From positions 970,064-1,002,063 of the forward strand of contig NZ_JHUX01000003.1 of the NCBI RefSeq assembly GCF_000619845.1: a stretch of DNA of 32,000 nt, in the 5' to 3' direction. The position numbers and the translations under genes are program-made. This stretch comes from Alkanindiges illinoisensis DSM 15370 (GTDB lineage Bacteria; Pseudomonadota; Gammaproteobacteria; Pseudomonadales; Moraxellaceae). Below the pieces are notes generated by a model. The model saw nothing but the letters and a program-made list of their open reading frames with translations, was not told the DNA's origin and did not search any database. Within the stretch, counting starts at the first letter, position 1. Each line of letters opens with the position of its first letter. Positions 8,479 to 29,883 of the stretch are shown here, in pieces.

Positions 8479-9063
8479 TTAAGCGTGATGTTCCAGATAG
8501 CTGGTAATGTAAAAGGCTAAAACAATGATCAGGACAATGAATAGTCCTAAAAATAAATAATTAATAGAAGAAAAAGGCTTAGCTGACTTAATGGTACGCT
8601 CATTGGCAATAGACTCATATTGCTCCAAAAAGGTATAGCTCACTGCCTCTTCATTTTGAATGATCAATTGAACAAACTCATCCAGCATCGTACCCTGAAC
8701 GATATAAGGATTAAACGTATCTTGATGCCAGTCCAAAAAAAATTGCTGAAGTACAGTTTCCCGAATAAAGTATTTAATATTCCAGAATTTAAATGACTTT
8801 GCTGGAATGATTTCTCGCTTTAATAGCAAAAAATCACGAGTATAGGGGCTTTCCAGAGACATCTGGTGAAACTTGTTAATCTGTTCTTCACTACCTTCAA
8901 TACAGTGCAAAAACGTGTTATTCCCATAAATCAGAACGCCACTTAACTCCTCGATATTATTCAATGTTTCACAAATCTGGGTGATCTCAATCAGATGCTG
9001 GCGAATTGTGGACGGGAGTGCCGTTGAAGTAGCCGCATAAATAAAACGGGTATAGTTTGGCAT
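8479..9063 (-). CDS. BLUF-like (BlsA-like) domain protein with C-terminal transmembrane anchor; photocycle Gln replaced by His
   Basis: By eye it aligns along its length with BLUF/BlsA: RFIYAATS (Tyr9), SGVLIYGNNTFLHCIEG (His53 where BLUF has FxQxLEG), FKFWNIKY (Trp94, with Ile96 where Met is usual) and DTFNP. Residues ~166-189 (INYLFLGLFIVLIIVLAFYITSYL) form a hydrophobic helix. Confidence 0.7.
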   Translation of the reverse strand: MPNYTRFIYAATSTALPSTIRQHLIEITQICETLNNIEELSGVLIYGNNTFLHCIEGSEEQINKFHQMSLESPYTRDFLLLKREIIPAKSFKFWNIKYFIRETVLQQFFLDWHQDTFNPYIVQGTMLDEFVQLIIQNEEAVSYTFLEQYESIANERTIKSAKPFSSINYLFLGLFIVLIIVLAFYITSYLEHHA

Positions 9064-10120: not shown

Positions 10121-12232
10121 CTATTCCTTTCTGTTCGGCCAACTGCTAACCAGTTTTTTCATTTGCTGAATGACTTTAGCCTGAGCTAGTTCATCCCCTG
10201 CTGGCGCATAACGTGCTTGCTGATAGAGCTGAATCAGCTCTTGTGCCGGCTTTTGATAAGCTGGATAGGCTGCTAACCGCTGCAACCAGTTCACTACACC
10301 TTCTGACTCACCCCGCGCCAAGTTTTCTTTGGTCAATTTTCTGGACAATCGCTGTAATGGTGCATCAAGCGGATGCCAGACTTTTCGCCTGCGCCACCAC
10401 ATGATCCCGACAATGATCGCTAGTAGGGTGATAAAGCTGCCTACCATCCAGGCCACTTGCACATACATGCTTTTGATACCAAACAGCCGCTGTAGCAGAC
10501 CTTGCTGCTGGGACTGGTCAAAACCCACCACATCCCGCTGCCATACGTAGCTGGCATAATCTGCCCAGACACGCGCCTGCCCTAAAAACCTGAACTGGCT
10601 GGAGCGTAGTTGGCCTAATACGTTATCACCAAAGACCTGCTGATCTTCCTGCATGAAATTATTCATGCCTTTTTCAACGCGCTCAGGTGCAACAGCAGCT
10701 GTTGGGTCAACCCGCACCCAGCCACGTCCGGCGAGCCAGATTTCCACCCATGCATGGGCATCCAGCTGGCGAACTTCCCAGCTTTGCTGATCTGGAGAAA
10801 ATTGGCCGCCCTGATAGCCCACCACCACCCGTGCCGGGATACCAGCTGCACGCATCAAAAATGTATACGATGATGAATAATGCTCACAAAATCCACGTCG
10901 GCTTTCAAACAGGAATTGATCAATCCGCTGGCCGGAGAGTACTGGTGGCTCCAGTGTATACACAAAATTTTGCTGTCTGATCCAGTTTAGCCAGTAATCG
11001 GCATAACGTTCAGGATTTCGCCCAACCTGATTAAACACCTGTTGCGCCAGTTGCCGGGTACGCGGATTACTGTTGGCTGGTAGCTGTAAATTGACTTGTT
11101 GTAGCCAGTCCGGTAACTCGGTATCACGCTTGAGATTTTTAAACTGTAAGGCGTCATAACTGAACTGGCGATAAACCTCGCGGGAACTTTTTAAATTATA
11201 TTCACGGGTTAAAGCAATGCCACGGGTACGGCTAAAGGGTACATCCAGCGCAAATAGCCATTGCTGCTGGGTCGGCTCAAGCAGCACCTGATATTCAAAC
11301 CCCGTATTCACCTTGCCTGCAAAAGTCTGTTTAAACCATTCAGGCTGGTATTGCATGCCTGTCCAGACGGGATTATCGGCGCGATAGTCCTTAAGCTGCG
11401 TCCAGGTGACGCCATCAAATTTGCTTAATACTAAACCACGCCAGTAGAGCTCTGAACGTGGAGGCAGATGCCTTGCCAGATTGTTTTGCTTATCCAGCAC
11501 ACGGAAGGCTAGCTCCGTGGACTGACTCAGGCTTGCAATATTGCCGGGTGACATCTGGTCAGTCATGCCGGTTTTACCCTGTGACTGGTTAACTGGCACA
11601 CTCCATAAAGGCGGAATTCGTGGAAAAAATATAAATAGAACCACAAGCAATGGAATGGCCTGTAAAAATAGGCGCAATAAAGGTTTCCATAGACCTGCTG
11701 AAGGATTGATGGCTTCGGGAATATTGGTTTTTAGCTGGGCAGAATGGTGATACAGCAGGTCAGGATTAATATTCTGCTGTAATAATGCATAAAATATAGC
11801 CAGAATACCCAGCAATGCCATAGCCGCATTAAAAATGGATTGTTCAAACAGAAATAGGCTGGCAACTACAAAAAGCGATAAGGTTAAGGCAATATAACTG
11901 TCACGGCGCTGTTTTAACTCAAGTAATTTACCCAGTAAACATAACGCCAGGAAAGCCACACCAGCATCTACACCAATAAGCGTACGATACGTTACCAATA
12001 TAATGGCAAGGCCTGCTGTCACAATAATATATTGATAAAACTTGGGTGGTTGTGAATGAAAGATTTTTCGACGCCGCGCCATGAGCCACAGGCTTATTAG
12101 CGTAATAAAGGTCAGTACTGAAAATAAGACAGGCAAATGAAAAACATGCGGGAAAAACACCACAAACTGTGCAGCAATAATACTAACAAATTGTCTGTAA
12201 CGAATCGGTTGTACAGGAATTAATGTGCTCAT
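10121..12232 (-). CDS. Transglutaminase-like membrane protein (TgpA-like: DUF3488 N-terminal TM region plus transglutaminase core)
   Basis: Multiple N-terminal TM helices. Cys-His-Asp core motifs GFCEHYSS, DAHAWVEIW and VRVDPT. Its ATG overlaps the DUF58 stop (ATGA). Confidence 0.88.
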   Translation of the reverse strand: MSTLIPVQPIRYRQFVSIIAAQFVVFFPHVFHLPVLFSVLTFITLISLWLMARRRKIFHSQPPKFYQYIIVTAGLAIILVTYRTLIGVDAGVAFLALCLLGKLLELKQRRDSYIALTLSLFVVASLFLFEQSIFNAAMALLGILAIFYALLQQNINPDLLYHHSAQLKTNIPEAINPSAGLWKPLLRLFLQAIPLLVVLFIFFPRIPPLWSVPVNQSQGKTGMTDQMSPGNIASLSQSTELAFRVLDKQNNLARHLPPRSELYWRGLVLSKFDGVTWTQLKDYRADNPVWTGMQYQPEWFKQTFAGKVNTGFEYQVLLEPTQQQWLFALDVPFSRTRGIALTREYNLKSSREVYRQFSYDALQFKNLKRDTELPDWLQQVNLQLPANSNPRTRQLAQQVFNQVGRNPERYADYWLNWIRQQNFVYTLEPPVLSGQRIDQFLFESRRGFCEHYSSSYTFLMRAAGIPARVVVGYQGGQFSPDQQSWEVRQLDAHAWVEIWLAGRGWVRVDPTAAVAPERVEKGMNNFMQEDQQVFGDNVLGQLRSSQFRFLGQARVWADYASYVWQRDVVGFDQSQQQGLLQRLFGIKSMYVQVAWMVGSFITLLAIIVGIMWWRRRKVWHPLDAPLQRLSRKLTKENLARGESEGVVNWLQRLAAYPAYQKPAQELIQLYQQARYAPAGDELAQAKVIQQMKKLVSSWPNRKE

Positions 12233-13179
12233 CAGGGTTCCTCCGCCAGCAGTCGTAAGGCCTGATTTGTATGGGTTTCACCATGTCCTAAAGGCAGTTC
12301 GCGCGTGGGTAACCTCATACTAAAAGCAATATTTTGTGCGCCAAGTATTTGCACCCAGTACGCCATTTGCGATAGCTTGGTTTCATGGTCAATTGCTGGC
12401 ATCTGGTCATAATCCAGCGCATCCTGTTCGGCACAAAAGTCTATAAACTGCTTGCTTAGTAACCCCTGTCCCTTGGCCAGATGCGACCATGATACCCGGG
12501 ACAAGGATTCGCCTTTAACATAGTTTTTCAATTCCTGAAATTCTTCCTGGCCGCTTAAACCATGCGTTTCCTCACCTTCTCCGCCAATGCGGTTTAATAC
12601 ATTGCGTTCAGCTTCAATTGGCTTTGGTGATACCCAGACTTCCTGATCAAAATAAATATATGTCCACGCACGAATCAGCCCCAATGGATATACACTTTGC
12701 AGCATCAGGCGTGGCGGCAAAAATTGTCCCCGTTTTGGTGTATCAATATCAAAATGCAGCACCTGTTTGTCATTAAGCACGGCAATGCGCTGATATTGCT
12801 GCCAGACCAGTTCAAGCTGGCAATAGCATTTGGCAGTGGTAGGGCTGATTTCAATTTGAAAACGGGCTTGGCCTTCAGCCTGACTGTCACTGGCATGCAG
12901 CACTTTTATTTTTAGACCGGATAACTGCGCATAGCTATGATGAATGCCAATAACCAGAATACTGCTCAGCAGAAAAAATACGCCCAGAATCAGATTATTG
13001 CCGTAATTGACACCTGCCAGAAAAGTCACTGCCAGTAACACAGCAAACAAGCCACCTTCCTTGGTTAAAAATACAAAAATCTGGCGCTGTGACAGCGTAA
13101 CTTCCCTGCAGCATGGCAAACGCCGCCGCATCCAGCGCTGAACAGGGGGCCGGTTTTCAAACCAGTTGGTGAGGCGCAT
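12232..13179 (-). CDS. DUF58 domain protein
   Basis: Two N-terminal TM segments. Positioned between the MoxR ATPase and the transglutaminase, the canonical operon order. Confidence 0.75.
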   Translation of the reverse strand: MRLTNWFENRPPVQRWMRRRLPCCREVTLSQRQIFVFLTKEGGLFAVLLAVTFLAGVNYGNNLILGVFFLLSSILVIGIHHSYAQLSGLKIKVLHASDSQAEGQARFQIEISPTTAKCYCQLELVWQQYQRIAVLNDKQVLHFDIDTPKRGQFLPPRLMLQSVYPLGLIRAWTYIYFDQEVWVSPKPIEAERNVLNRIGGEGEETHGLSGQEEFQELKNYVKGESLSRVSWSHLAKGQGLLSKQFIDFCAEQDALDYDQMPAIDHETKLSQMAYWVQILGAQNIAFSMRLPTRELPLGHGETHTNQALRLLAEEP

Positions 13180-13193
13180 AAAAAGCTCCTCTA

Positions 13194-14198
13194 TCAGCTA
13201 ATAACAGGAACTTGACGCAGGATTTGATGAGCCGGGGAATCTGCACCGCCAATGCCTTTAACCCCCAGTCGATGATCAGCAACTGCCACAAATACTGCCT
13301 GAATATCTTCAGGAATGACAAAAGCTCGACCTTCAACCAGTGCATACGCCTGTGCAGCACGTTTTAGTGCCAGTAAGCCACGGGTCGATAATCCGGTGTG
13401 CTGGCCAGTACGGGTTTGTTCAACCAGATGCTGCAAATAATCCAGCACGGGTTCTGACAGATAAATGTCATTCACCAGCTGGCGATAGTCTTTTAATGAT
13501 TGCGTATTCAGCAGCGCCTCCACTGCTTTTAGCATGCTACGGCGATCCTGCCCCAGCAAAATTTCCCGCTCGGCCTGTGCTGAGGGAAAACCCAGGGATA
13601 AGCACATCAAAAAGCGGTCAAGCTGCGATTCTGGCAATGGGTATGTGCCAGACTGGTTAATGGGATTTTGGGTAGCAATCACAAAAAAAGGCTGCGGCAA
13701 TGTTCGGGTTACACCATCCTGTGATACCTGATTTTCCTCCATAGCCTCCAGCAATGCACTCTGGGTTTTAGGGCTGGTACGGTTGATTTCATCGGCCAGC
13801 AGAACCTGAGTAAAAATCGGGCCTTCCCGAAATTCAAATTCCTGTTTCTCCGGGTTAAAAATTGATAAGCCCAGAATGTCACTGGGCAGCATGTCACTGG
13901 TAAACTGTACCCGGCGATAGCTTAGCCCGGATAGCTTAGCCAGACTTTCAGCCATGGTGGTTTTACCCATCCCCGGCAAATCCTGTAGCAATAAATGCCC
14001 ACCTGCCAGAATGCAGCTTAGAGCCAGCTTGGTTTGTTGCGGCTTATCAAGCACAATCTGGTTAAGCTGATTAAGAAACTGATCCAGTTTTGCCTTGGTG
14101 TGGGTGACCAGTTGCTCTACTTCCTGCTGGGAACGCTTTATTGTTTCTACAATGGCTTTTTCTGAAGCAACATTTGGTGGGGTGGCATCCTGAAGCAT
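13194..14198 (-). CDS. MoxR-family AAA+ ATPase
   Basis: Walker A GMGKTT, Walker B LLADEINR, and the MoxR-like segments ATQNP..G.YPLPE.QLDRF. Confidence 0.9.
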   Translation of the reverse strand: MLQDATPPNVASEKAIVETIKRSQQEVEQLVTHTKAKLDQFLNQLNQIVLDKPQQTKLALSCILAGGHLLLQDLPGMGKTTMAESLAKLSGLSYRRVQFTSDMLPSDILGLSIFNPEKQEFEFREGPIFTQVLLADEINRTSPKTQSALLEAMEENQVSQDGVTRTLPQPFFVIATQNPINQSGTYPLPESQLDRFLMCLSLGFPSAQAEREILLGQDRRSMLKAVEALLNTQSLKDYRQLVNDIYLSEPVLDYLQHLVEQTRTGQHTGLSTRGLLALKRAAQAYALVEGRAFVIPEDIQAVFVAVADHRLGVKGIGGADSPAHQILRQVPVIS

Positions 14199-14431: not shown

Positions 14432-14725
14432 TTAGCAGGGGCATTTTCCAACTTTCCCGGCTTTATTAGGATAACGCGCTTCTAGGCAATGACGGTAGAA
14501 CTGCTTTTCAGTCATGGCCTGAAGCTGCGGATGATGTTGCTGCATGTGCTGCAAATACGCCTGATAGTCGTGGACTCCGACCATCAGGCGGAAGCTTTGT
14601 GCCAAGCGCGTTATAATTAACTTAAGCTTGCTTTGCCAGCTTAAGCCAACCTGTACAGCCACTGAACCTGTTTTTGCTGGTAAAATCCGGTGAATATGCA
14701 AGCTATTAACCTTTCTTTTAAGCAT
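14432..14725 (-). CDS. YbdD/YjiX family small protein (CstA-associated)
   Basis: The C-terminal core LMVGVHDYQAYLQHMQQHHP..MTEKQFYR..EARY...GKCPC matches YbdD. It lies directly downstream of cstA. The start is uncertain: ATG 14725 gives 97 aa, and GTG 14662 gives a more family-typical ~76 aa. The ORF start at 14836 overlaps cstA and is rejected. Confidence 0.75.
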   Translation of the reverse strand: MLKRKVNSLHIHRILPAKTGSVAVQVGLSWQSKLKLIITRLAQSFRLMVGVHDYQAYLQHMQQHHPQLQAMTEKQFYRHCLEARYPNKAGKVGKCPC

Positions 14726-14750
14726 AGAAAATTCAACAAACGGGACAGGT

Positions 14751-16844
14751 TTAAACTGATGGCTGGGCATCTGTATTGGACTTTTCATAGCTGGTGTTTT
14801 CATGGACAATTTCAGCCTCATGTACTGTAGGTTCACTCGCGCGTAAAGCCTTATAGATTACTCTAAAAGATGCCAGCAGCATTACTACGGCCACAATCAT
14901 AAAAAAGGCACACAGCACCGCATTAATCTGATTGCTAAATACAATCGTATGCATATCCTCAAGGGTTTTAGCGGGCGCAATAATTGTGCCCTGATCCATT
15001 GCAGTGGCATACTTGCTGGATTGTGCCAAAAAACCAATTTTGGGATTTGCATGGAAGATCTTTTGCCAGCCCGCGGTTAACGAGGTAACCAGCAACCAGA
15101 GAGTCGGTACAATTGTCACCCAGGCATAACGCTGTTTTTTCATCTTAAACAAAATAACAGTGCCTAAAATTAACGCCATGCTGGCCAACATCTGATTGCC
15201 AATACCAAACAGCGGCCATAAGGTATTAATACCACCGAGTGGATCAATCACACCCTGATAGACAAAAAAGCCCCAGCCTGCCACTGCAACCGTTGTACCC
15301 ATAATATTCCCCAGCCATGAACGATTATTCGCAATACTGGGAACCACTGTACCTGCCAGATCCTGCACCATAAAGCGACAGGCCCGTGTACCTGCATCCA
15401 CAGCGGTTAAAATAAATAGCGCTTCAAACAAAATAGCAAAGTGATACCAAAAGGCCATCATGGCACGGCTATTGAAAATTTCCGAAATAATATGTGCCAT
15501 ACCCACCGCAAAAGTTGGTGCACCGCCTGCACGTGACAAAATACTTTGTTCACCCACTTCTTTAGCAATAAGGCTTAACATTTCTGGCGTCACTACAAAA
15601 CCCAGTTGGCTCACAGCCTGGGATGCAGATTCTACGGTTGTGCCGATAATGGCTGCTGGAGCATTCATGGCAAAATACACACCTGGCTCTAATACAGATG
15701 CGCAAATGAGCGCCATAATGGCGACAAAGGATTCCATCAGCATTGCGCCATAGCCAATAAAGCGGATATGGCTTTCGTTCTCAACCAGTTTGGGCGTTGT
15801 TCCACTAGACACCAGCGCGTGGAAACCGGAAATTGAACCACAGGCAATCGTAATGAATAAAAACGGGAACAGGCTACCAGCAAATACAGGACCAGTCCCA
15901 TCGATAAACGTCGTTACTGCAGGCATTTTAAGCATAGGCATGGCAAACACAATTCCAATGGCCAGCCCGACAATCACCCCAATTTTTAAAAAAGTAGACA
16001 AATAATCCCGAGGTGCCAGTAGCAGCCAAACCGGCAAAACAGATGCAATAAAACCATAAATTACCAGCACCCAGGTTAACGTGGTGCCAGACAACGTAAA
16101 CAAGGGACCCCAATAAGGATCAGCCGCCACATTACCACCATAAATAATCGCCAGCATCATCAGCACAAAGCCAATGATGGATACTTCAGCAATTTTACCA
16201 GGTCGTAAGTAGCGCATATAAATACCCATCAACAAGGCGATGGGAATCGTTGCAGCGATAGTAAATGTCCCCCACGGACTATTGGTTAAAGCCTTTACCA
16301 CTACCAGTGCCAGTGCTGACAAAATAATAATCATCACACCCAGCGCGCCCAGCATGACCACCACACCTGCAAATGAACCCAGTTCCTGCTTGGCCATTTC
16401 TCCGAGCGAGCGGCCATCACGGCGTGTGGAAATAAACAGCACCAGAAAATCCTGAACGGCACCCGCCACCATGACACCAACCAGAATCCATATCGTCCCA
16501 GGCAAAAATCCCATTTGCGCAGCCAGAATTGGCCCAACCAGTGGCCCTGCACCGGCAATCGCTGCAAAGTGATGGCCAAACAGTACCCATTTGTTGGTGG
16601 GGACGTAATCCAATCCATCATTTAAGCGTACTGCAGGCGTCAACCGGCGGTGATCCAGCTCAAACACACGATTGGCAATAAACAGGCTATAAAAGCGATA
16701 AGCAATGCTATAACAGCTGACAGCGGCAACTACCAGCCATAAGGCATTTACCTGCTCACCCCGGCTCAATGCCAGCATGGCAAATGAAAAAGCACCTATT
16801 AGTGCAACAACAAACCAGATGAGTTTGGATTTAAGCTGAGTCAT
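14751..16844 (-). CDS. cstA: Carbon starvation protein A (CstA family peptide/pyruvate transporter)
   Basis: 697-aa polytopic membrane protein with CstA-typical segments (HFAAIAGAGPLVGP, SGFHALVSSGTTPK), followed by a ybdD-like gene. Confidence 0.92.
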   Translation of the reverse strand: MTQLKSKLIWFVVALIGAFSFAMLALSRGEQVNALWLVVAAVSCYSIAYRFYSLFIANRVFELDHRRLTPAVRLNDGLDYVPTNKWVLFGHHFAAIAGAGPLVGPILAAQMGFLPGTIWILVGVMVAGAVQDFLVLFISTRRDGRSLGEMAKQELGSFAGVVVMLGALGVMIIILSALALVVVKALTNSPWGTFTIAATIPIALLMGIYMRYLRPGKIAEVSIIGFVLMMLAIIYGGNVAADPYWGPLFTLSGTTLTWVLVIYGFIASVLPVWLLLAPRDYLSTFLKIGVIVGLAIGIVFAMPMLKMPAVTTFIDGTGPVFAGSLFPFLFITIACGSISGFHALVSSGTTPKLVENESHIRFIGYGAMLMESFVAIMALICASVLEPGVYFAMNAPAAIIGTTVESASQAVSQLGFVVTPEMLSLIAKEVGEQSILSRAGGAPTFAVGMAHIISEIFNSRAMMAFWYHFAILFEALFILTAVDAGTRACRFMVQDLAGTVVPSIANNRSWLGNIMGTTVAVAGWGFFVYQGVIDPLGGINTLWPLFGIGNQMLASMALILGTVILFKMKKQRYAWVTIVPTLWLLVTSLTAGWQKIFHANPKIGFLAQSSKYATAMDQGTIIAPAKTLEDMHTIVFSNQINAVLCAFFMIVAVVMLLASFRVIYKALRASEPTVHEAEIVHENTSYEKSNTDAQPSV

Positions 16845-17290
16845 TCAAGCGTCCCTGTTTTATTCTTAATGTTTTTCACTGTCTTGCTGATTCACATTGA
16901 CAGTAAAAATTAAAATATTCTTAAAAATACTCTTTTTATTTTCTACATCAAAGTAGACTTTGGACTACATTGACAAATCCGCTACAACAAAAACTGCCTT
17001 TTATATGGCTTTGCTTAACCATTTAAAAATTTAATTATCATAACATGTTGTAAATATTAGCTATTTTTCATGGACAAGATTGCCTGATTTCATGTTATTA
17101 ACCCAACAAAAACCGATAAATAATCATTGATTCATGCACTAGAATGTAACAGAAGAAAATACTTCGCCGCTTTTTTAAGCATAAAATAAATGAAAGTTGA
17201 AGTAAGAAAAAAGAATTGTGCTGCACTAGCAACTTGCGCAGTAATAATGCAGGCTAGCACGAATAATCGTATAAAAATAAACAAATAGTC

Positions 17291-17546
17291 ATGTTAAATC
17301 AAACTGTTCTTTTACGCGGAATCAATGATAATATAGATACACTTGTTGCATTAAGCGAACAATTATTTGAAAGCCAAGTGCTACCCTGTGATCTGAGTGT
17401 AGCTGCACGGTAGAAGCGCCGCTCATTTTGATATGAATGAACAAGATGTAATAGCCTTTTGCAGGGTACTGATGTCTAAGTCACCGGGCTATTTATTGCC
17501 AAAGCTGGTACGTGAAATTGCAGGCATATGCCACAAGATTCCGTGA
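17291..17546 (+). pseudogene. epmB: Remnant of epmB/yjeK (lysine 2,3-aminomutase-like, EF-P beta-lysylation); C-terminal fragment with stop and frameshift
   Basis: Translation gives LNQTVLLRGINDNIDTLVALSEQLFESQVLP, then an in-frame TAG at 17411-17413. A shifted frame continues AAHFDMNEQDVIAF..LMSKSPGYLLPKLVREIAG...KIP*. This matches the EpmB C-terminus (NQSVLLRGVNDN..LF..GV.PYYLH..D...GAAHF........GYLVPKL.REI.G). The roughly 250 N-terminal residues, including the radical-SAM Cys motif, are absent. Confidence 0.7.
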
Positions 17547-17602
17547 AACCGAAATAAGCTTGGTTATATGGAGAATCTTGGTTTTAAGGGAAAATAACTT
17601 CA

Positions 17603-19381
17603 ATGAATCAGAACATTAGCAATTTGCTTATTAATGATCAGCCAGAAATGACAGTTGCACAGTTAAGTCTTGTGCAAGCCAATAAAAATAGTGTGCGAGA
17701 CTGGCTTGCCAATCTTTCCATGCTTAACCTCGGTGATACAGCACGTCAGTTGTACACTACCCTTAAAGAATTGTCCCAGTTGCAAACTGATGAACAGACT
17801 CGCTTTGAGCTGACTGAACTGTTGCGCCCTTCTGTTCACACCATTATTTCTTCCCTAAGCAAGCATTACTTTAGCCAGAATTTTTCGCTTGACCAGCGTG
17901 CACAACGCATTGCCACGCTGGTTGAAGAAATTCGTGTATATCTAATCGTCATTTACGATACGATTTCAATGCACTGTTATCAGAAGCTACAATCACAAAA
18001 CTTTGGCTTATTTAATATCAAAAACAAGAAAAATCTGCTGGATCTAATTGGTCTGTCCAGTCATCGTGCACTGACCGAAATGACAGGTCTGCTCTATGAG
18101 CTGCAATCGCTTTACCTAACCATTCCCAAAGGTTTATGGAAAAAAACCCATACCCTGTATCAGCGGGCACTACAGTTACATCTCACCAAGATGGAAATTG
18201 AGGACAAAACCAATCCTATTATTGTGTTGTCCAATATCAAGCGTGCTTATAGTCGCATGATTATCATGGGAGCTAGTAATACCAATAAATTGCGTCAGTC
18301 AGAAATCAAGGCCATTTATCAGTCCAGTATCTTATGGGCAGACCTGATTTCACTGGATAACGCAGAAACACCGTATCATCTGTTTAGCATTGACCTCGAA
18401 CTGGATCAGCCCCCTGTTTATATTACAAAAAGAACTGGTTCGCCTGCGTCCATGCTTTTTGTCAATGCGCAAAAACTACTACAACACTTTAAAAATCTGA
18501 TGAATCAGTATCCGCAGTACTTGCACGCCAGCGAACAAAAACAGTTTAGTACTGCCCTAAAAGTGCATTTGGTAAATAATTTTTCAGCGCCTTCTGAGCG
18601 TATTCATACCCGCCATCCCTACTCTGGCAAGGTAGATATTGCTTTTGGTTTACTCGGGATTCATTACCATTTATCAAATGGTAAAACCTTTGAAGACATC
18701 ATTAATATTCATCGTGACTATCTACTTACCAGTGATACTGAGGTTAAAAGCCTGTTTGGCCAGGTTGAATATGATGTAGATATTGATTTTCCGGGACAAG
18801 GTAGCCAGAAAAAAACCGAGGCTGTCGCTGAAATGTCAGAGCTTTATAAATGCGAGATTGTCAATATCAGTCCAGGTGGCTATTGCCTGCGCTGGCAGGG
18901 TGAAAGCCCTACCACGTTGCGTACTGGTGAACTTGTGGTGATTTGTGAGCCCTCCGACAAGGTATGGCACATCGGCCTGATCCGCTGGGTAAAACAAATT
19001 CCGATTAAAATCATTGAATTTGGCATCGAAATTATTTCATCTCGCGCCAAAATCTGTGGTATCCGTGCTTCACAGCGCAACGATAATATTGACAGTTTTA
19101 AGCGGGCAATCTTACTACCAGAAATTCAGAGTTTAAACCGTCCTGCCACCTTGATTACTCAAGCTTTTGCTTTCCATAGTAATCAGCGCGTGATTATCCG
19201 TTATGGCAATGAAGAAATTCGTGCCATTTTGAATAAAGAATATCTTATTACGCAAAGTTTCATTCAATTTGAATATACAATTGAGGAAGATGACTTAAAC
19301 TCGACGAAAATTGAGAACCAGTATACAATTGACAGCAATACACTGGTAAGTCCTGACGATGAAGTCTGGAAAATATTGTAA
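17603..19381 (+). CDS. Large protein with unrecognised N-terminal domain and atypical (split) PilZ-like C-terminal region
   Basis: RxxxR (RIHTR, aa 333-337) and [DN]xSxxG (NISPGG, aa 421-426) are present but 84 residues apart. Beta-rich sequence follows (LRTGELVVIC, WHIGLIRWV, IEFGIEII). I recognise nothing in aa 1-330. Confidence 0.65.
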   Translation: MNQNISNLLINDQPEMTVAQLSLVQANKNSVRDWLANLSMLNLGDTARQLYTTLKELSQLQTDEQTRFELTELLRPSVHTIISSLSKHYFSQNFSLDQRAQRIATLVEEIRVYLIVIYDTISMHCYQKLQSQNFGLFNIKNKKNLLDLIGLSSHRALTEMTGLLYELQSLYLTIPKGLWKKTHTLYQRALQLHLTKMEIEDKTNPIIVLSNIKRAYSRMIIMGASNTNKLRQSEIKAIYQSSILWADLISLDNAETPYHLFSIDLELDQPPVYITKRTGSPASMLFVNAQKLLQHFKNLMNQYPQYLHASEQKQFSTALKVHLVNNFSAPSERIHTRHPYSGKVDIAFGLLGIHYHLSNGKTFEDIINIHRDYLLTSDTEVKSLFGQVEYDVDIDFPGQGSQKKTEAVAEMSELYKCEIVNISPGGYCLRWQGESPTTLRTGELVVICEPSDKVWHIGLIRWVKQIPIKIIEFGIEIISSRAKICGIRASQRNDNIDSFKRAILLPEIQSLNRPATLITQAFAFHSNQRVIIRYGNEEIRAILNKEYLITQSFIQFEYTIEEDDLNSTKIENQYTIDSNTLVSPDDEVWKIL

Positions 19382-19404
19382 TATTTTAAGGGATTTAAAT
19401 TTTT

Positions 19405-21504
19405 ATGAATAGTCGCTCTCAACACCTCCAACTTCTGGTTATTGATGATGAGCAGACGACTGCAAATAATCTTGCACAATTGCTGCAACAGCAACATACA
19501 ACAACCCAGTTTCAGCTACTGGATGATCAGGAAGAATTTGAGAAAGCCATTCGTACCCATTGGGACGTCATTTTATTTGGCCATGCTTATGATCTGGATT
19601 ATCAAAAAGTTCTCCAGTTATTAAAGGACAATAATCTGGAAATTCCAGTCATTGCTATTCCTGATGAAATGGCTGCCCCTGCTGATAATCAGGATACCTC
19701 GCCTGATCTGGTTGCCGGGTTTAAGCTGGGTCTAACCGATGTAATTCCCCGGCACCAGTTAACCCATCTGGCTTATGCAATACAGCGTGAGGCAAAATAC
19801 TCACGCAATGTCGCACGTAATCTTAAGCTTAGTAATCAGTTCAAAGAAGCAGAACGACGTGCCCAGCTACTGGTAAAAAACTCAAAAAGTGCTGTGGCCT
19901 ATATTCATGATGGCGTTCATATTTATACCAATGAAACCTATAACGAACTGTTTGGTTATCATTCCCTTGAAGATTTGGTAGGTATGCCGGTCATTGACCT
20001 GATTGAAGGCAAGGATATTAATTCTTTTAAAGAGTTTTTACGCGCGTATAGCCGTGGTGCAACCCAGCAATCTGAATTCAAGTTTAATGGGATCAAGGCT
20101 GATGGGACTGAATTTGAAGCACTGCTGCAGCTTGCACCTGCAAGCTATGACGGTGAAGACTGTATCCAGATCATTATTCAGCCTCAGCTACAGTCCAGTG
20201 CTGCGCTTGCTGCACAGCTTGCAGTAATTGAACGGGTTGATAATCTAACCAAACTCAATAATCGTCTTGCCTTTGAAGAAGACCTGACCAAAACACTGGC
20301 TCAATTACGCATTACGCCTGCTGAGCATGCCGTGCTATATATTAATATCGGTAATATTGGTCATATTCATGCCATTGCCGGTCTTTCAGGTAGCGACACT
20401 GCCATTCTGGATATTGCCAAACTTTTGAAAAAAGAACTGGCACCAAACGAGCTTTATCGTTTCCGTGAATCCAGTTTCACTGTTATTTTGAATGGCCAGA
20501 ATATTGAGGAAGCGAGAGCTACTGCCAAAAGTCTATGCCATCTCGTGTCTGAACATCTGATTATGGTGGATAAACGTACTGTTCAGGCAACCATTAGCAT
20601 TGGCGTTGTGCCCATTAACCAAAGCTCACCGGGTCAGGCTGAAGTACTGGATCGTGCATATCAGTCCTCGGAAAAAGTTAGACTACAAAATCAGGGCAGC
20701 GGTAATGGGATATATGTGTATAACCCTGCCGAAAATGCCAATAACTCTGACAGTGCCTTGCGTGAACTTCTGGAAAATGCGCTAAATCGTGGCCAGTTCC
20801 AGCTCATGTTCCAGCATATTTATGACACGACTGAACAGGATCAGGAGCTATTTGAAGTCTATGTCCGCCTGCCGCTGGGTGATGGCAAAGTCATGGGCCC
20901 TGATGAATTTCTGGCAGTTGCCCAGCAATATCATCTTGAAGGCCGTATTGACCGCTGGATACTGCTGAATGCCTCAAAACTGCTCAAAGCCTTTATGGTT
21001 CAGCACCCTAAAGCGCGCTTACTGATTAATCTGGGTGTAGAGTCCATTCAGGATCCAAGTCTGTCTGATGTCATTACCAAGTTGCTGGGGGCGCTTAACT
21101 CGCCTCATAAGCCGTTAATTCTGCAATTTAATGAAGCCAATGTATCGACCTATATGCAACTGGCTAAGACCCAGCTGGAAGCTTTAAGAAATGTAGGGGC
21201 GCAAGTCTCTGTCAATGACTTTGGTTCAACCTTAAACAGCAAAAACCTGCTGAATTATCTAAAGCTGGATCTGGTTAAGCTGGACAAAGCCTATATGACC
21301 AATCTGAACAATGATGATAACTACAATGCCACACAGGCACTGGTATCAGAAATTCAGGAATATGAAATTGATATTATTGGCGGTTATATTGAGGCCCCAC
21401 AGGAAGTTGCCAAGGCTTGGACACTGGGTGCCCGCTATCTGCAAGGTTATTACTTCCAGAAACCAATGGACAAACTGGTCTTAAATCAGGAAGAGCAAAT
21501 TTGA
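19405..21504 (+). CDS. FimX-like REC-PAS-GGDEF-EAL protein with degenerate catalytic motifs
   Basis: The REC-like N-terminus (LLVIDDE) has WDVILFG where the phospho-acceptor Asp is expected. PAS region (AVAYIHDGVHIYTNETYNELFGY). The GGDEF domain (DNLTKLNNR) has RESSF instead of GG[DE]EF. The EAL domain has FEVYVRL instead of EAL, NDFG instead of DDFG and GGYIE instead of EGVE, while KLDK and QGYYF are retained. Confidence 0.8.
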   Translation: MNSRSQHLQLLVIDDEQTTANNLAQLLQQQHTTTQFQLLDDQEEFEKAIRTHWDVILFGHAYDLDYQKVLQLLKDNNLEIPVIAIPDEMAAPADNQDTSPDLVAGFKLGLTDVIPRHQLTHLAYAIQREAKYSRNVARNLKLSNQFKEAERRAQLLVKNSKSAVAYIHDGVHIYTNETYNELFGYHSLEDLVGMPVIDLIEGKDINSFKEFLRAYSRGATQQSEFKFNGIKADGTEFEALLQLAPASYDGEDCIQIIIQPQLQSSAALAAQLAVIERVDNLTKLNNRLAFEEDLTKTLAQLRITPAEHAVLYINIGNIGHIHAIAGLSGSDTAILDIAKLLKKELAPNELYRFRESSFTVILNGQNIEEARATAKSLCHLVSEHLIMVDKRTVQATISIGVVPINQSSPGQAEVLDRAYQSSEKVRLQNQGSGNGIYVYNPAENANNSDSALRELLENALNRGQFQLMFQHIYDTTEQDQELFEVYVRLPLGDGKVMGPDEFLAVAQQYHLEGRIDRWILLNASKLLKAFMVQHPKARLLINLGVESIQDPSLSDVITKLLGALNSPHKPLILQFNEANVSTYMQLAKTQLEALRNVGAQVSVNDFGSTLNSKNLLNYLKLDLVKLDKAYMTNLNNDDNYNATQALVSEIQEYEIDIIGGYIEAPQEVAKAWTLGARYLQGYYFQKPMDKLVLNQEEQI

Positions 21505-21542
21505 TGGCTCTTGCCTGTTAAACACTGAAAAAGCAGGCAAAC

Positions 21543-21568
21543 AAAAAACGGGCAATTGCCCGTTTTTT
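21543..21568. terminator. Bidirectional rho-independent terminator between the FimX-like gene and rpmE
   Basis: aaaaaacgggcaattgcccgtttttt: GC-rich palindromic stem flanked by an A-run and a T-run, between convergent genes. Confidence 0.88.
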
Positions 21569-21594
21569 GATTTTTGACATACTGCTACAAACAA

Positions 21595-25241: not shown

Positions 25242-27968
25242 ATGACTTCCAGACAAAGTATTCAATTGAATGAGCAAAAGGCCACCTCCTTAGCAGAAGC
25301 TGCTGTAGCAAAGCCATCAAAACGTCGGGACAAGTCCATGAAAACTACCTCTATGCAAAGCGCCTCAATCATTGACCCTAGCAATACCCATGAAAAAACC
25401 CGGCTGCAACCCAATCAGCTAACACGCCTGCCGAATCTGGATAATATTCCTGCATCTACCCGTCGCATCAAGCCTTTAAATGATTTTTTAGGCCAGCAGC
25501 GGGCACGGGCTTCAGTTGAGGCTGCCTTATCCTTACCTTACGATGGCTATAATATTTTTGCTGTAGGCCCCAGTGGACTGGGCAAGCGCACCATGCTCAA
25601 GCGTTTGCTGCTTAAGCAGGCGGCGCAAATGCCAACACCAAGTGACTGGGTGTATGTCAATAATTTTGCCGACACCCGGCAGCCGATTGCGCTGGAATTA
25701 CCGGCTGGCCAGGGTCCAAAACTTAAAAAAGCCATGCATCAGCTTTGGCAAACCATGCTGAATACCCTAGAGCGCCGCTTTACCACCGATAGTTATCATG
25801 CACGCATTGAAACCATCCGCCAATCTACTGGCCAGCAACAGCAGGATGCCTTAATTGAGCTAACCCAGGAAGGTGAAGCACTGGATTTGCGCTTGATTTC
25901 ACGTAATGAAGAGCACCGTTTTGTCCCTGTGCATCATGTTGAGCCGCCATCAAATGCTGGACAGTCGAATGCCGAACAGCCGCAAAGCAACTTGCCGCCT
26001 GAATTAACCGAAGAAGAAATGGCTGCACTGGCACCGAGTGTACGCGCCCGTATTGCCCAGAATGTACGGCAAATGGACAAAAAACTGGAAAAACTGGGAT
26101 CACAATTGGGCCAAATGGAAGAACAGGCCCGTGCCAAGGTTTCTACTATTAACCGCGAGCTGGCCAGCAGTGTGGTTGAACCCAAGATTATGCAAATTGC
26201 CCAGCGCTTTGAGCATGTCGATGGTCTTGAGCAATATTTAAAAGTTTATGCTCAGGATATTATTACCCATGTTGAACATATTCTGGCGCAGGATGAAGAA
26301 GACTTTTTGCCCGGAATTTTTGACCGGGTGCCACCGCGCTATCAGGTCAATGTGGTGGTTACGCACAAGCCAAACAGTGGCGCGCCTGTTATTTTTGAAG
26401 ACCTGCCTACCCACTACAATTTGTTAGGCCATGTTGAACAGCTCACCCAGATGGGTACGATCACAACGGACTTTACCCTAATCCGCTCCGGGGTGCTGCA
26501 CCATGCCAATGGCGGTTTTTTGATTCTGGAAGCCGATCAATTACTGGAACAACCTTATGCATGGCAAGGTTTAAAACGTGCCTTGCGTTCAGGCCATATC
26601 AAGCTGTCTTCACTGGAGCACATGATCACCCTGACTGGCAGTATTTCCATTGAACCGGCAGCTATTCCACTACAGGTGAAAGTGGTACTGCTAGGCGAAC
26701 CCTATATTTATTATGAGCTGCTGGAATTTGAACCCGAACTTAATAGCCTGTTCAAGATCCGTGCAGATTTTACCGATACCCTGCCGCGCAATGATGAAAA
26801 CGAACAGGCTTATATGCGCCTGATTGCCGATTACGTGCAAAAAGAAAAACTACTGCCTTTTGACCGTAGTGCTCTGGCTGCCTTGCTGACTGATTCCAGC
26901 CGTCAGGCTGAAGACCAGACTTCCCTGTCCTTGCATGCCGCAACGCTGGGTGACCTGCTACGTGAAGCAGCGCATCTTGCGGCCAGTCAGGAAGCTACCA
27001 TGGTGAGTGCCCAGCATATTGCCGATACGCTGGAACAGCGCCGCTACCGCTTGGGCTACTTGCGTGAACTGTATTGGCAGGACTTGTCACGTGGTACACA
27101 ACTGATTGAAACCAGCGGCCTGCGCTATGGACAAATCAATGCGCTCACTGTCGTGCATTATGCCGATAGTGAATTTGGCCTGCCTGCCCGTCTCACTGCC
27201 TCAGTCTATCAGGGTGGTGGCGATATTCTGGATATTGAACGCAATGTTGAGCTGGGCGGTTCGCTGCATGCCAAAGGCATCCTCATCATGTCGAGCTTCC
27301 TGCGCTCGCACTTTGGCCGCTCACAGCCATTGCACTTTTCAGCAGCATTGGCCTTTGAGCAAAGCTATGGCGAAATTGATGGTGACAGTGCGACTTTGGC
27401 TGAGTTAAGTGCCCTGATTTCTGCCATTAGCCATATTCCCATTGATCAGTCGTGGTCTATTACCGGCTCCATGAACCAGTTGGGTCAGGTACAGCCTATT
27501 GGTGGTATTAATGCCAAGATTGAAGGTTTTTATGATGCCTGCAAACTGCAGGGTCTAACTGGCAAGCAGGGCGTTATTTTTCCGGTACAAAACATGCAAC
27601 ACCTGATGCTGCGTCAGGATGTGATTGAAGCGGTTGAACAGGGCAAGTTCCATTTACATGCAATCGACACCATTGAACAGGCGCTTGAGTTGTTAATGAA
27701 TCGCCCGGCAGGTCAAATTGACGCTAAAGGTAAATATACTAAAGGTAGTATTTATGCTGAGGTAATGCGCCAGCTTAAATCATGGCAAGTGCTGGAAAGT
27801 GGTGAGCCGGAAAAGGACAAAAAGCGTAAGAAAAAGAAATCCAAGTCCAAAAAAGCGGCCTTGCAGAAGCAACCCGTTGAAGACATTGCTGAGGATAGTT
27901 CAACTGCTCCAAATGAAGCTGCTGAAGTGAAAACCAGTTCTAGTCAGCCGGATGAGCAAGGTAGCTGA
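25242..27968 (+). CDS. Lon-like AAA+ protease (AAA ATPase domain plus Lon C-terminal Ser-Lys protease domain)
   Basis: Walker A GPSGLGKRT. Lon proteolytic motifs GDSATLAE (Ser) and GGINAKIEG (Lys). Polybasic, then acidic, C-terminal tail. The start is uncertain because ATG 25242 has no clear RBS. Confidence 0.85.
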   Translation: MTSRQSIQLNEQKATSLAEAAVAKPSKRRDKSMKTTSMQSASIIDPSNTHEKTRLQPNQLTRLPNLDNIPASTRRIKPLNDFLGQQRARASVEAALSLPYDGYNIFAVGPSGLGKRTMLKRLLLKQAAQMPTPSDWVYVNNFADTRQPIALELPAGQGPKLKKAMHQLWQTMLNTLERRFTTDSYHARIETIRQSTGQQQQDALIELTQEGEALDLRLISRNEEHRFVPVHHVEPPSNAGQSNAEQPQSNLPPELTEEEMAALAPSVRARIAQNVRQMDKKLEKLGSQLGQMEEQARAKVSTINRELASSVVEPKIMQIAQRFEHVDGLEQYLKVYAQDIITHVEHILAQDEEDFLPGIFDRVPPRYQVNVVVTHKPNSGAPVIFEDLPTHYNLLGHVEQLTQMGTITTDFTLIRSGVLHHANGGFLILEADQLLEQPYAWQGLKRALRSGHIKLSSLEHMITLTGSISIEPAAIPLQVKVVLLGEPYIYYELLEFEPELNSLFKIRADFTDTLPRNDENEQAYMRLIADYVQKEKLLPFDRSALAALLTDSSRQAEDQTSLSLHAATLGDLLREAAHLAASQEATMVSAQHIADTLEQRRYRLGYLRELYWQDLSRGTQLIETSGLRYGQINALTVVHYADSEFGLPARLTASVYQGGGDILDIERNVELGGSLHAKGILIMSSFLRSHFGRSQPLHFSAALAFEQSYGEIDGDSATLAELSALISAISHIPIDQSWSITGSMNQLGQVQPIGGINAKIEGFYDACKLQGLTGKQGVIFPVQNMQHLMLRQDVIEAVEQGKFHLHAIDTIEQALELLMNRPAGQIDAKGKYTKGSIYAEVMRQLKSWQVLESGEPEKDKKRKKKKSKSKKAALQKQPVEDIAEDSSTAPNEAAEVKTSSSQPDEQGS

Positions 27969-28382: not shown

Positions 28383-29621
28383 TCAGGATGCTTTGGTATT
28401 GGATAACGACTGTGGTGCCAGATGGGCAAATACATAGCCATCACGGCCTCTGTTCTTGGCTTTATATAGCGCATGATCGGCACAATATAAAAAGTCGTTT
28501 ACATCTTCGTTCATTTGCGGCACATAGGTCACAACGCCAATACTTAAAGTCACATGCTGCGATATTTCGCTGGCCGGGTGTGGAATGTGCAGGTTTTTAA
28601 TAGCCCGTAACAACCTCTCGGCCTGGCGAATTGCATGTTGCTGGCTGGTCATTGGCAGTAAAATCACAAACTCTTCACCACCGTAACGTGCCACCAGCTC
28701 ACCACTTCGTGTAGCAACTTTGGTAATGGCGTGAGCTATTTTAATTAAGCATTGATCACCTGCCAGATGCCCCAGTGAATCGTTATATGCCTTAAAATAA
28801 TCAATATCAATCATCATGATGGACAACGGAGTCTGGTGGCGCATGGCGCGATACCACTCTTCTTCCAGCATTTCATCCAGATAACGGCGGTTGGCAATCC
28901 CGGTTAGGGCATCCTGACGTGACATGACTTCCAGTTGCTGGGTCTGCTGTACCATTTCAATGCGGTGTAATTCCAGCAAGCAGGATTGCAAATAATTTTC
29001 GCGATGATGGCGATCAGTCACATAGGCCAAAGCCATGCCCAGAAAACTGCTGAATGTATAAGTCCGGTTGAGCAAGGTCCATGCAATTTCATTGCTAAAA
29101 TACATGCTAACCAATGTGCCTAACGCACCACCTACCCAACCTGCCAGAATGGCTACATAGAAACGCAGCCCTACAAAGCCATAAACGATTACTACAGCAT
29201 ACATAATAGCGGCATGTAACAGCACACTACCCTGTTCATCATGCACAAGGTTAACAATCGTAAAAGAAATCGCAATTGCAATTGTTGAACCAATGGTGGC
29301 ATACCAGTCAAACCACTGGTGCATTTTTTCAAACCAGCTAAATCCCCAGGCTGTCAGGACAATAATGCCCACACAGCCATACAGCTTTAGCCATAGGCCC
29401 ACCTGCTCAGCAGGTAATAGCTGATAAATCCCATAACTCAAGAATAGGTAAAGCAGCAGGATAATTGGGCCACGATAACGAAATTCGTGTGCGGCTTCAT
29501 TCTGGTATTGAAATCGATAGTCTTTTTCCAGTTTTGCAGGAAACCAGACAAAGTTTAAATCCTTACCCAGTAATTTTTGGATTTCTTTACGTTCCAGCAG
29601 GTTGGAACCTTGTAATTTCAT
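28383..29621 (-). CDS. Membrane-bound diguanylate cyclase (multi-TM N-terminal sensor region plus GGDEF domain with GGEEF)
   Basis: DALTGIANRR, DIDYFKAYND and RYGGEEFVILL indicate an intact active site. The position five residues upstream reads RSGE rather than the I-site RxxD. About six hydrophobic helices lie N-terminally. The start is uncertain (ATG 29621 or GTG 29660). Confidence 0.85.
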   Translation of the reverse strand: MKLQGSNLLERKEIQKLLGKDLNFVWFPAKLEKDYRFQYQNEAAHEFRYRGPIILLLYLFLSYGIYQLLPAEQVGLWLKLYGCVGIIVLTAWGFSWFEKMHQWFDWYATIGSTIAIAISFTIVNLVHDEQGSVLLHAAIMYAVVIVYGFVGLRFYVAILAGWVGGALGTLVSMYFSNEIAWTLLNRTYTFSSFLGMALAYVTDRHHRENYLQSCLLELHRIEMVQQTQQLEVMSRQDALTGIANRRYLDEMLEEEWYRAMRHQTPLSIMMIDIDYFKAYNDSLGHLAGDQCLIKIAHAITKVATRSGELVARYGGEEFVILLPMTSQQHAIRQAERLLRAIKNLHIPHPASEISQHVTLSIGVVTYVPQMNEDVNDFLYCADHALYKAKNRGRDGYVFAHLAPQSLSNTKAS

Positions 29622-29883
29622 TATCGCCGCATCCTTGGTGGAAGTGCTTAAACACCTCACTGTCCTTATAGCAATCCCGCAGTCATCCTAACATTGGGAA
29701 AAAGTAGTTCTATTAGTTTTATATTGTGTAAAAATAGCAGAAGTTTTATATTTTTTAATAGTTCGAATTACAAAATGTAATAAAAGGCTTACACGTTCGG
29801 TCACGAAATAACCTTGCCAATACGTATTGAAAATTATTAACTTCTATAAAGGATAAATATAAGCTACAGGTTAGGGATAAACC

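Follow-up and report, generated by a model that had tools for sequence, protein, structure and literature searches.

Two adjacent genes in the genome of Alkanindiges illinoisensis DSM 15370 raise the question of whether they make up a new kind of receptor module for cyclic di-GMP (c-di-GMP) or belong to a system that has already been described. The genes lie in a 32,000-nucleotide (nt) stretch of contig NZ_JHUX01000003.1 (hereafter the window) as open reading frame (ORF) 1, which encodes a protein of 592 amino acids (aa) with PilZ signatures, and ORF2, which encodes a FimX-like protein of 699 aa. An earlier note on this DNA had put the pair forward as an undescribed module. Here we find that it matches the fimW–fimX pair of Pseudomonas aeruginosa (PA4958 and PA4959), of which FimW has already been characterised as a c-di-GMP effector. 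We conclude that the region is, with high probability, a fimW–fimX operon that is orthologous to PA4958–PA4959 and encodes a c-di-GMP-sensing pair controlling type IV pili. Direct support covers how the genes are built, the families to which they belong, the strict linkage of the pair, the conserved binding motifs and the lost catalytic residues. The earlier note erred on novelty, not on biology: a two-gene unit, two products that are receptor-like rather than enzymatic, a FimX-like second protein and type IV pili as the likely output are all upheld. The locus adds an Alkanindiges copy to a described and widespread module with curated Pfam families, and is not of a new kind.

In P. aeruginosa, PA4958 is FimW and PA4959 is FimX (PMC10335732), and the literature places the gene for FimW directly upstream of fimX. 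When c-di-GMP rises on surface contact, FimW moves to the poles and pilus assembly is stimulated (PMC10212136). We took the biology of FimW from reviews, one of which (2024) states that its exact function is unknown and that an interaction with FimX or PilB has not been demonstrated. P. aeruginosa FimX (PaFimX) has a reported dissociation constant for c-di-GMP of 144 nM (PMC12139848); it is reported to have no enzymatic activity in vivo and not to bind GTP, and to bind PilB directly, with no adaptor.

A probable two-gene transcription unit

The unit comprises two genes, their initiation signals and one terminator.

17603..19381, + strand: ORF1, fimW orthologue, 592 aa, predicted c-di-GMP effector of the FimW family
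19405..21504, + strand: ORF2, fimX orthologue, 699 aa, predicted degenerate REC–PAS–GGDEF–EAL c-di-GMP receptor
17586..17591, + strand: Shine–Dalgarno-like AAGGGA, 11 nt 5′ of the fimW ATG, from direct reading of the sequence
19388..19393, + strand: Shine–Dalgarno-like AAGGGA, 11 nt 5′ of the fimX ATG, within the 23-nt spacer
21542..21569, + strand: intrinsic terminator after the pair, with a 12-bp stem (6 G–C pairs), a 4-nt loop and a T-run

ORF calling and a terminator scan confirmed the arrangement that had been described before, with two ORFs on the same strand, a spacer of 23 nt (19382–19404) and no hairpin between them. The strong terminator said to close the pair was confirmed at 21542–21569; it is the sole terminator-like site on the + strand in the scan, which found no such site between fimW and fimX. 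The two genes have an identical initiation context (TTTTAAGGGA, 11 nt, ATG). Because the spacer is so short, each gene has its own ribosome-binding site and a single terminator follows the pair, fimW and fimX are probably cotranscribed.

An exhaustive profile search returned 1,909 clusters (50% identity) of ORF1 homologues at E ≤ 1e-30, mostly full length and nearly all of about 600 aa. As ORF1 has so many homologue clusters and the pair is kept in other genomes, both ORFs are genuine genes rather than products of chance.

ORF1 as a member of the FimW family

All 69 homologues of ORF1 in a large protein database have precomputed matches to PF27104, PF27125 or both, which a genome-context look-up names FimW_N and FimW_C, respectively. 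Both families are present in 66 of the 69, and the three truncated homologues (P0064–P0066) have one each. Among the homologues with these families is a protein that is 99% identical to ORF1 over 100% of its length (P0001). The first 330 or so residues, which the earlier note could assign to no family, therefore correspond to the curated family FimW_N, and the domain has no match to a family of unrelated function. Residues 1–592 of ORF1 are also colinear with residues 1–599 of a FimW-family protein from Pseudomonas fulva (P0322; 29% identity, E 2e-89).

The likeness to P. aeruginosa FimW extends over the FimW_N and FimW_C families in close homologues of ORF1, the length of about 600 aa, the conserved RxxxR and [DN]xSxxG motifs and the position of the gene, which immediately precedes a co-oriented fimX. 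There are differences: ORF1 is just ~29% identical to Pseudomonas members of the FimW family, and Alkanindiges is a hydrocarbon-degrading member of the Moraxellaceae.

With Pfam PilZ (PF07238), ORF1 scores 14.1 bits (E 0.063), short of the cut-off of 22.5, and just 7 of 43 members of the FimW family score at E ≤ 0.01. Because the PilZ match stays below threshold, the label ‘atypical PilZ’ that had been given to ORF1 is a fair one. In motifs and predicted fold, ORF1 appears to resemble a PilZ receptor, although Pfam places it in FimW_C rather than in PilZ.

Linkage across Pseudomonadales

We scanned one genome per species, which gave 416 loci with a FimW relative, and examined the best 80 (L001–L080). 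A FimX-like gene lies directly 3′ of fimW on the same strand in all 75 loci that have at least 2.2 kb of downstream DNA, so that the pair is syntenic in related genomes, a point on which the claim of a functional module had been made to depend. The spacer has a median of 84 nt (range 14–481 nt). The best 80 loci include members from Alkanindiges, Fluviicoccus, Agitococcus, Pseudomonas, Marinobacter, Mangrovitalea, Ketobacteraceae and Oleiphilaceae, and the closest is from A. illinoisensis (98% identity). Given linkage in 75 of 75 loci across these taxa, the pairing is old and stable. Adjacency that is essentially invariant over several families of Pseudomonadales argues for functional coupling of the two genes.

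Pseudomonas loci read psd–fimW–fimX–serB, with serB on the opposite strand; we take this order to be that of PA4957–PA4960 in strain PAO1. The Alkanindiges locus differs in having a decayed epmB upstream of ORF1 in place of psd. In around 35 of the 80 loci, the gene immediately 5′ of fimW and co-oriented with it is an intact epmB of about 340 codons (for example, L004–L006, L009, L046 and L069), and because these loci span several families, epmB–fimW–fimX is probably the ancestral order outside Pseudomonas. We rejected the idea that the pair is a horizontally acquired novelty, as synteny tracks taxonomy and the ancestral epmB neighbour is a shared one.

The upstream remnant itself is as follows.

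17270–17549, + strand: epmB remnant (radical-SAM enzyme of elongation factor P (EF-P) beta-lysylation), frameshifted and 5′-truncated, codons ~245–338 (TIGR03821, E 1.7e-23)

It falls within a 758-nt region upstream of fimW. As an identical truncation is common to L001–L003, the decay of epmB can be placed in the clade of A. illinoisensis and A. hydrocarboniclasticus.

A degenerate FimX orthologue

On sequence grounds, ORF2 is a FimX orthologue. Its five best relatives in the PDB are all FimX structures (4j40, E 8.5e-60; 7lkq, 3hv8, 3hv9 and 4afy, ~1e-39), ahead of the best relative that is not FimX, PA0861/RbdA (E 3.4e-22), and it is 31% identical to P. fulva FimX from end to end (E 1e-106). 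The Pfam order is Response_reg, PAS, GGDEF and EAL.

19435..19659, + strand: REC-like domain without a phospho-acceptor Asp (Response_reg, E 0.037, below the cut-off)
19864..20160, + strand: PAS domain, aa 154–252 (PF00989, E 1.8e-08)
20236..20685, + strand: degenerate GGDEF domain, with RESSF for GG[DE]EF and no RxxD I-site (PF00990, E 1.8e-15)
20767..21465, + strand: degenerate EAL domain, predicted c-di-GMP-binding site (PF00563, E 7.9e-45)

The REC-like domain is likewise faint in the Pseudomonas FimX orthologue. All of the altered motifs that had been listed for ORF2 are where they were said to be: WDVILFG (aa 53–59), RESSF (354–358), EVY (484–486), NDFG (604–607) and GYIE (660–663). ORF2 shares the degenerate REC–PAS–GGDEF–EAL architecture and the catalytic losses of PaFimX (PA4959; 4J40, 3HV8, 3HV9, 3HVA and 4AFY), with differences in spelling (RESSF versus GDSIF, EVY versus EVL, NDFG versus SQFG, and N542 versus H533). 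The description of these motifs as ‘fully degenerate’ thus stands for ORF2, but it does not set the locus apart, as the degeneration is common to PaFimX and to all 76 FimX orthologues from related loci on which our FimX counts are based. In those orthologues, the columns after the invariant W53–D54 are [ACFLV][GRA] and never Asp (76/76), the GGDEF signature is [GSR][DE]xxF, and DDFG has become [STN]xFG. In every case, Gln stands in for the first Glu of ExxE (Q574 in ORF2), and Tyr, Phe or Leu for that of EGVE (Y661 in ORF2).

This pattern bears on the possibility that ORF2 is active as a phosphodiesterase or cyclase and controls how much c-di-GMP the PilZ module of FimW meets locally, in an enzyme-plus-sensor pair. 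Several EAL residues are kept in ORF2 (E484, R488, N542, E577, K625, E663 and Q680), most of them throughout the orthologues (E484, R488, E577 and K625 in 76/76, E663 in 75/76 and Q680 in 71/76), and the second Asp of DDFG is present (NDFG). However, ORF2 lacks the first Asp of DDFG as well as the first Glu of both ExxE and EGVE, its GGDEF signature reads RESSF, and PaFimX, which has the same pattern, is the protein reported as inactive in vivo and unable to bind GTP. We consider an enzyme-plus-sensor pair highly improbable, and rejected ORF2 as an active enzyme because catalytic residues are lost across the whole family.

The residues by which PaFimX contacts c-di-GMP are L477, R479, H533, F652, E654 and Y673, as given in a 2025 preprint on Acinetobacter baylyi (PMC12139848). 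An alignment through the PDB maps them to Y486, R488, N542, Y661, E663 and Y682 of ORF2: three of the six are identical, two are conservative replacements and one is the canonical Asn of EAL domains. This set is compatible with binding and closer to PaFimX than to the non-binding A. baylyi protein, so that ORF2 is probably of the ligand-binding PaFimX type.

Like ORF2, the A. baylyi protein (AbFimX; ACIAD2209) comes from the Moraxellaceae; its domains follow the same general order, and it acts in type IV pili, as is predicted for ORF2. It does not bind c-di-GMP, PilB or PilZ and controls pilus localisation through the Pil–Chp system; its contact positions hold T, G, N, E, N and S, whereas ORF2 keeps PaFimX-like residues, and the paper mentions no FimW partner (PMC12139848). 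Alkanindiges could have been rewired in the same way, with a FimX that is independent of c-di-GMP and places pili through Pil–Chp rather than PilB, leaving FimW as the sole c-di-GMP sensor. Besides the shared family, the drift of EAL to EVY in ORF2 and the replacement of PaFimX H533 by Asn, as in AbFimX, speak for this. Yet ORF2 keeps R488, E663, Y682 and an aromatic residue at 661, where AbFimX has G, N, S and E, and the Asn at 542 is what most of the family has at this position, besides being canonical for EAL domains. ORF2 is also 31% identical to Pseudomonas FimX from end to end, compared with 21% between AbFimX and PaFimX. Finally, no Acinetobacter is among the best 80 of the 416 FimW loci, which suggests that Acinetobacter left the fimW–fimX arrangement that Alkanindiges kept. 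Taken together, such rewiring in Alkanindiges seems to us improbable, if less so than an active enzyme.

Moraxella and Psychrobacter are likewise missing from the best 80 of the 416 loci, among which more distant Pseudomonas and Marinobacter are present. Considered with A. baylyi FimX, which is divergent and does not bind the ligand, their absence there suggests that Acinetobacter, Moraxella and Psychrobacter have lost FimW or carry a strongly diverged form of it. Alkanindiges offers a contrast within the Moraxellaceae to A. baylyi, whose FimX lost c-di-GMP binding.

Anatomy of FimW

We modelled FimW with AlphaFold, both at full length (predicted local distance difference test score (pLDDT) 83.6, predicted template modelling score (pTM) 0.82) and as FimW_N alone (pLDDT 92.6, pTM 0.92), and counted motif conservation in 81 FimW proteins.

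17603..18592, + strand: FimW_N domain, aa 1–330, mainly helical with a small beta element (AlphaFold)
18593..19282, + strand: FimW_C region, aa 331–560, PilZ-like beta-barrel and a second beta module (AlphaFold, Foldseek)
18599..18613, + strand: RxxxR motif, R333-I-H-T-R337, both Arg 81/81 and invariant also in alignments A1 and A2
18863..18880, + strand: [D/N]xSxxG motif, N421-I-S-P-G-G426, N 80/81, and S423, G425 and G426 81/81
19352..19378, + strand: acidic C-terminal tail PDDEVWKIL-COOH, aa 584–592, candidate docking peptide

RIHTR and NISPGG, the two PilZ signatures reported before, are both in place. In the model, R333-x-x-x-R337 sits at the junction of FimW_N and FimW_C, and N421-x-S-x-G-G426 lies on the barrel. 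The barrel (aa 338–489) is broken by an insertion of about 60 aa, disordered at 376–404, and is followed by the second beta module (aa 500–560), a disordered linker (aa 563–583, pLDDT < 50) and a short terminal helix. In ORF1, R337 and N421 are 83 aa apart; we use this value alone, as spacings taken by regular expression across the family are unreliable owing to spurious RxxxR matches.

The Foldseek matches with probabilities of 0.77–0.95 are all PilZ receptors (MotI 5vx6, MrkH 5kec, PA0012 8u0i, MapZ 5y4r and the PilZ domain of BcsA 4i86), and YcgR (5y6f) and PP4397 (3kyf) follow at 0.25–0.38. In structure, the C-terminal 230 aa of FimW come closest to two-barrel PilZ receptors (YcgR, MotI/DgrA, MrkH and PP4397), which have the same ligand-binding motifs. 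The matches are weak, however (E 7e-3 or worse, template modelling score ~0.2), and FimW differs in its extra helical N-terminal domain of 330 aa, the ~60-aa insertion between the motifs and the C-terminal tail. The full-length model had no Foldseek match at E ≤ 1e-3. Matches to Cry toxin, retromer and 14-3-3 proteins were rejected as generic helical or beta similarity, given their low probability and very high root mean square deviation.

FimW_N had no structural neighbour when searched alone against the PDB with Foldseek (best E 0.29, probability ≤ 0.25), and a PDB sequence search with the family profile gave no meaningful relative (Aer2, E 0.89) and none for FimW_N. A confidently predicted fold with no solved structural relative makes FimW_N a lead for the regulation of type IV pili.

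At the other end of the protein, the tail follows a nearly invariant consensus, [DE][DE][FY]D[SE][LIV]W-x-x-L-COOH; W-x-x-[LIMVF]-COOH is found in 80 of the 81 proteins and the Leu itself in 79. As it sits behind a variable and disordered linker, the tail looks like a docking peptide. We found no description of it in the literature examined, and it makes a precise and easy target for mutation.

The earlier note compared ORF1 with the small PilZ protein through which Xanthomonas FimX acts, calling ORF1 about five times larger. The Xanthomonas system (4F3H, 4F48, 4FOK and 7LKQ) is similar in that pilus extension is under the control of a degenerate GGDEF–EAL receptor for c-di-GMP, which works with a protein whose fold is related to PilZ. 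The partner there is different: a small PilZ protein that does not bind c-di-GMP, is not encoded beside fimX and belongs to a family other than FimW. ORF2, too, matches Xanthomonas FimX (E 1e-23 to 1e-39) more weakly than PaFimX (E 8.5e-60). The comparison is misplaced because the P. aeruginosa counterpart of the small adaptor is PilZ (PA2960), which the literature treats as a protein separate from FimW (PA4958), and its architecture is not that of ORF1. An enlarged adaptor of the Xanthomonas type was rejected as an identity for ORF1, which is of another family, has 592 aa in three modules and carries invariant binding motifs.

A related proposal concerns function, namely that FimW is an oversized PilZ-type adaptor that bridges FimX to PilB, the pair forming an obligate hetero-complex. 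The strict gene linkage (75/75) with short spacers, the conserved tail with its docking-peptide look (80/81) and the helical FimW_N, a type of domain that is often a scaffold for binding proteins, would all fit a bridge. Gene linkage by itself is no proof of contact, however; the FimW family is distinct from the small adaptor (PA2960/XAC1133 type), which P. aeruginosa has as well, and FimX of P. aeruginosa is reported to contact PilB directly. A bridging role for FimW is therefore doubtful in our view.

A probable c-di-GMP-sensing pair for type IV pili

The reading that we prefer, a fimW–fimX operon acting on type IV pili, extends to ligand binding, polar recruitment and pilus output of the Alkanindiges pair by analogy with P. 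aeruginosa. One transcript would give rise to FimW and FimX. As the level of c-di-GMP rises, for example on surface contact, FimW would bind it through its PilZ-type module, and the bound form would gather at the pilus-bearing pole and stimulate type IV pilus assembly. The EAL pocket of the catalytically dead FimX would be a high-affinity site for c-di-GMP, and FimX would promote pilus extension, either via the PilB motor or via the positioning of PilB. With the two genes probably cotranscribed, the cell would have two c-di-GMP receptors for one output at a fixed ratio.

Several points weigh against this reading. No type IV pilus genes were found in the window. FimW_N and FimW_C were assigned to ORF1 via the precomputed annotation of its homologues; direct scans of ORF1 with Pfam and NCBIfam releases that predate the two models gave only the sub-threshold PilZ match and a spurious SAM_1 match. 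ORF1 is tied to PA4958 by the naming of the Pfam families, by other species of Pseudomonas and by the literature: a search with FimW of Pseudomonas peli listed only closer Pseudomonas species, under names such as ‘molecular chaperone’ or ‘cyclic-di-GMP-binding protein’, and no entry from P. aeruginosa. Published phenotypes of P. aeruginosa fimW conflict, with reports that the gene is needed for optimal piliation and twitching, that twitching is at the wild-type level in PA14, and that there are no visible pili yet twitching occurs. Finally, the behaviour of AbFimX described above belongs here too: because FimX of Acinetobacter does not bind c-di-GMP and positions pili through Pil–Chp, function is not uniform within the Moraxellaceae.

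It is also conceivable, although we think it rather unlikely, that FimW and FimX are parts of one machine and that their linkage reflects physical or sequential coupling. The FimW tail would then be the docking site for a partner protein (FimX, PilB or a polar landmark like FimV, for instance), and the structurally unprecedented FimW_N would act as a scaffold. If true, this would account for the recruitment of FimW to the pole by c-di-GMP, a point left open in the literature.

Other genes in the window

About 7 kb from fimX is a gene for a protein with a strong and apparently intact GGDEF domain.

28383–29660, − strand: 424-aa GGDEF protein (Pfam E 1.9e-54; TIGR00254 E 6.6e-53)

Judging from its domain, this protein is likely to be an active diguanylate cyclase; its N-terminal 230 aa fall outside any assigned family.

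The remaining genes of note are as follows.

8479–9063, − strand: BLUF blue-light sensor protein (PF04940, E 1.2e-11)
10121–14198, − strand: three-gene unit, consisting of the next three entries
13194–14198, − strand: MoxR-type AAA_3 ATPase
12232–13179, − strand: 315-aa protein with no Pfam or NCBIfam match
10121–12232, − strand: TgpA-type transglutaminase membrane protein
14432–16844, − strand: cstA (carbon starvation protein, E 4e-256), then an overlapping small Sel_put/YbdD-like ORF
25242–27968, + strand: 908-aa LonC/LonB-like AAA protease with AAA_32, LonC_helical and Lon_C domains

In the related genus Acinetobacter, motility and biofilm formation are under the control of BLUF proteins. 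The Sel_put/YbdD-like ORF is listed as 134 aa with a GTG start and is probably over-extended, because the Pfam match spans its last 64 residues only.

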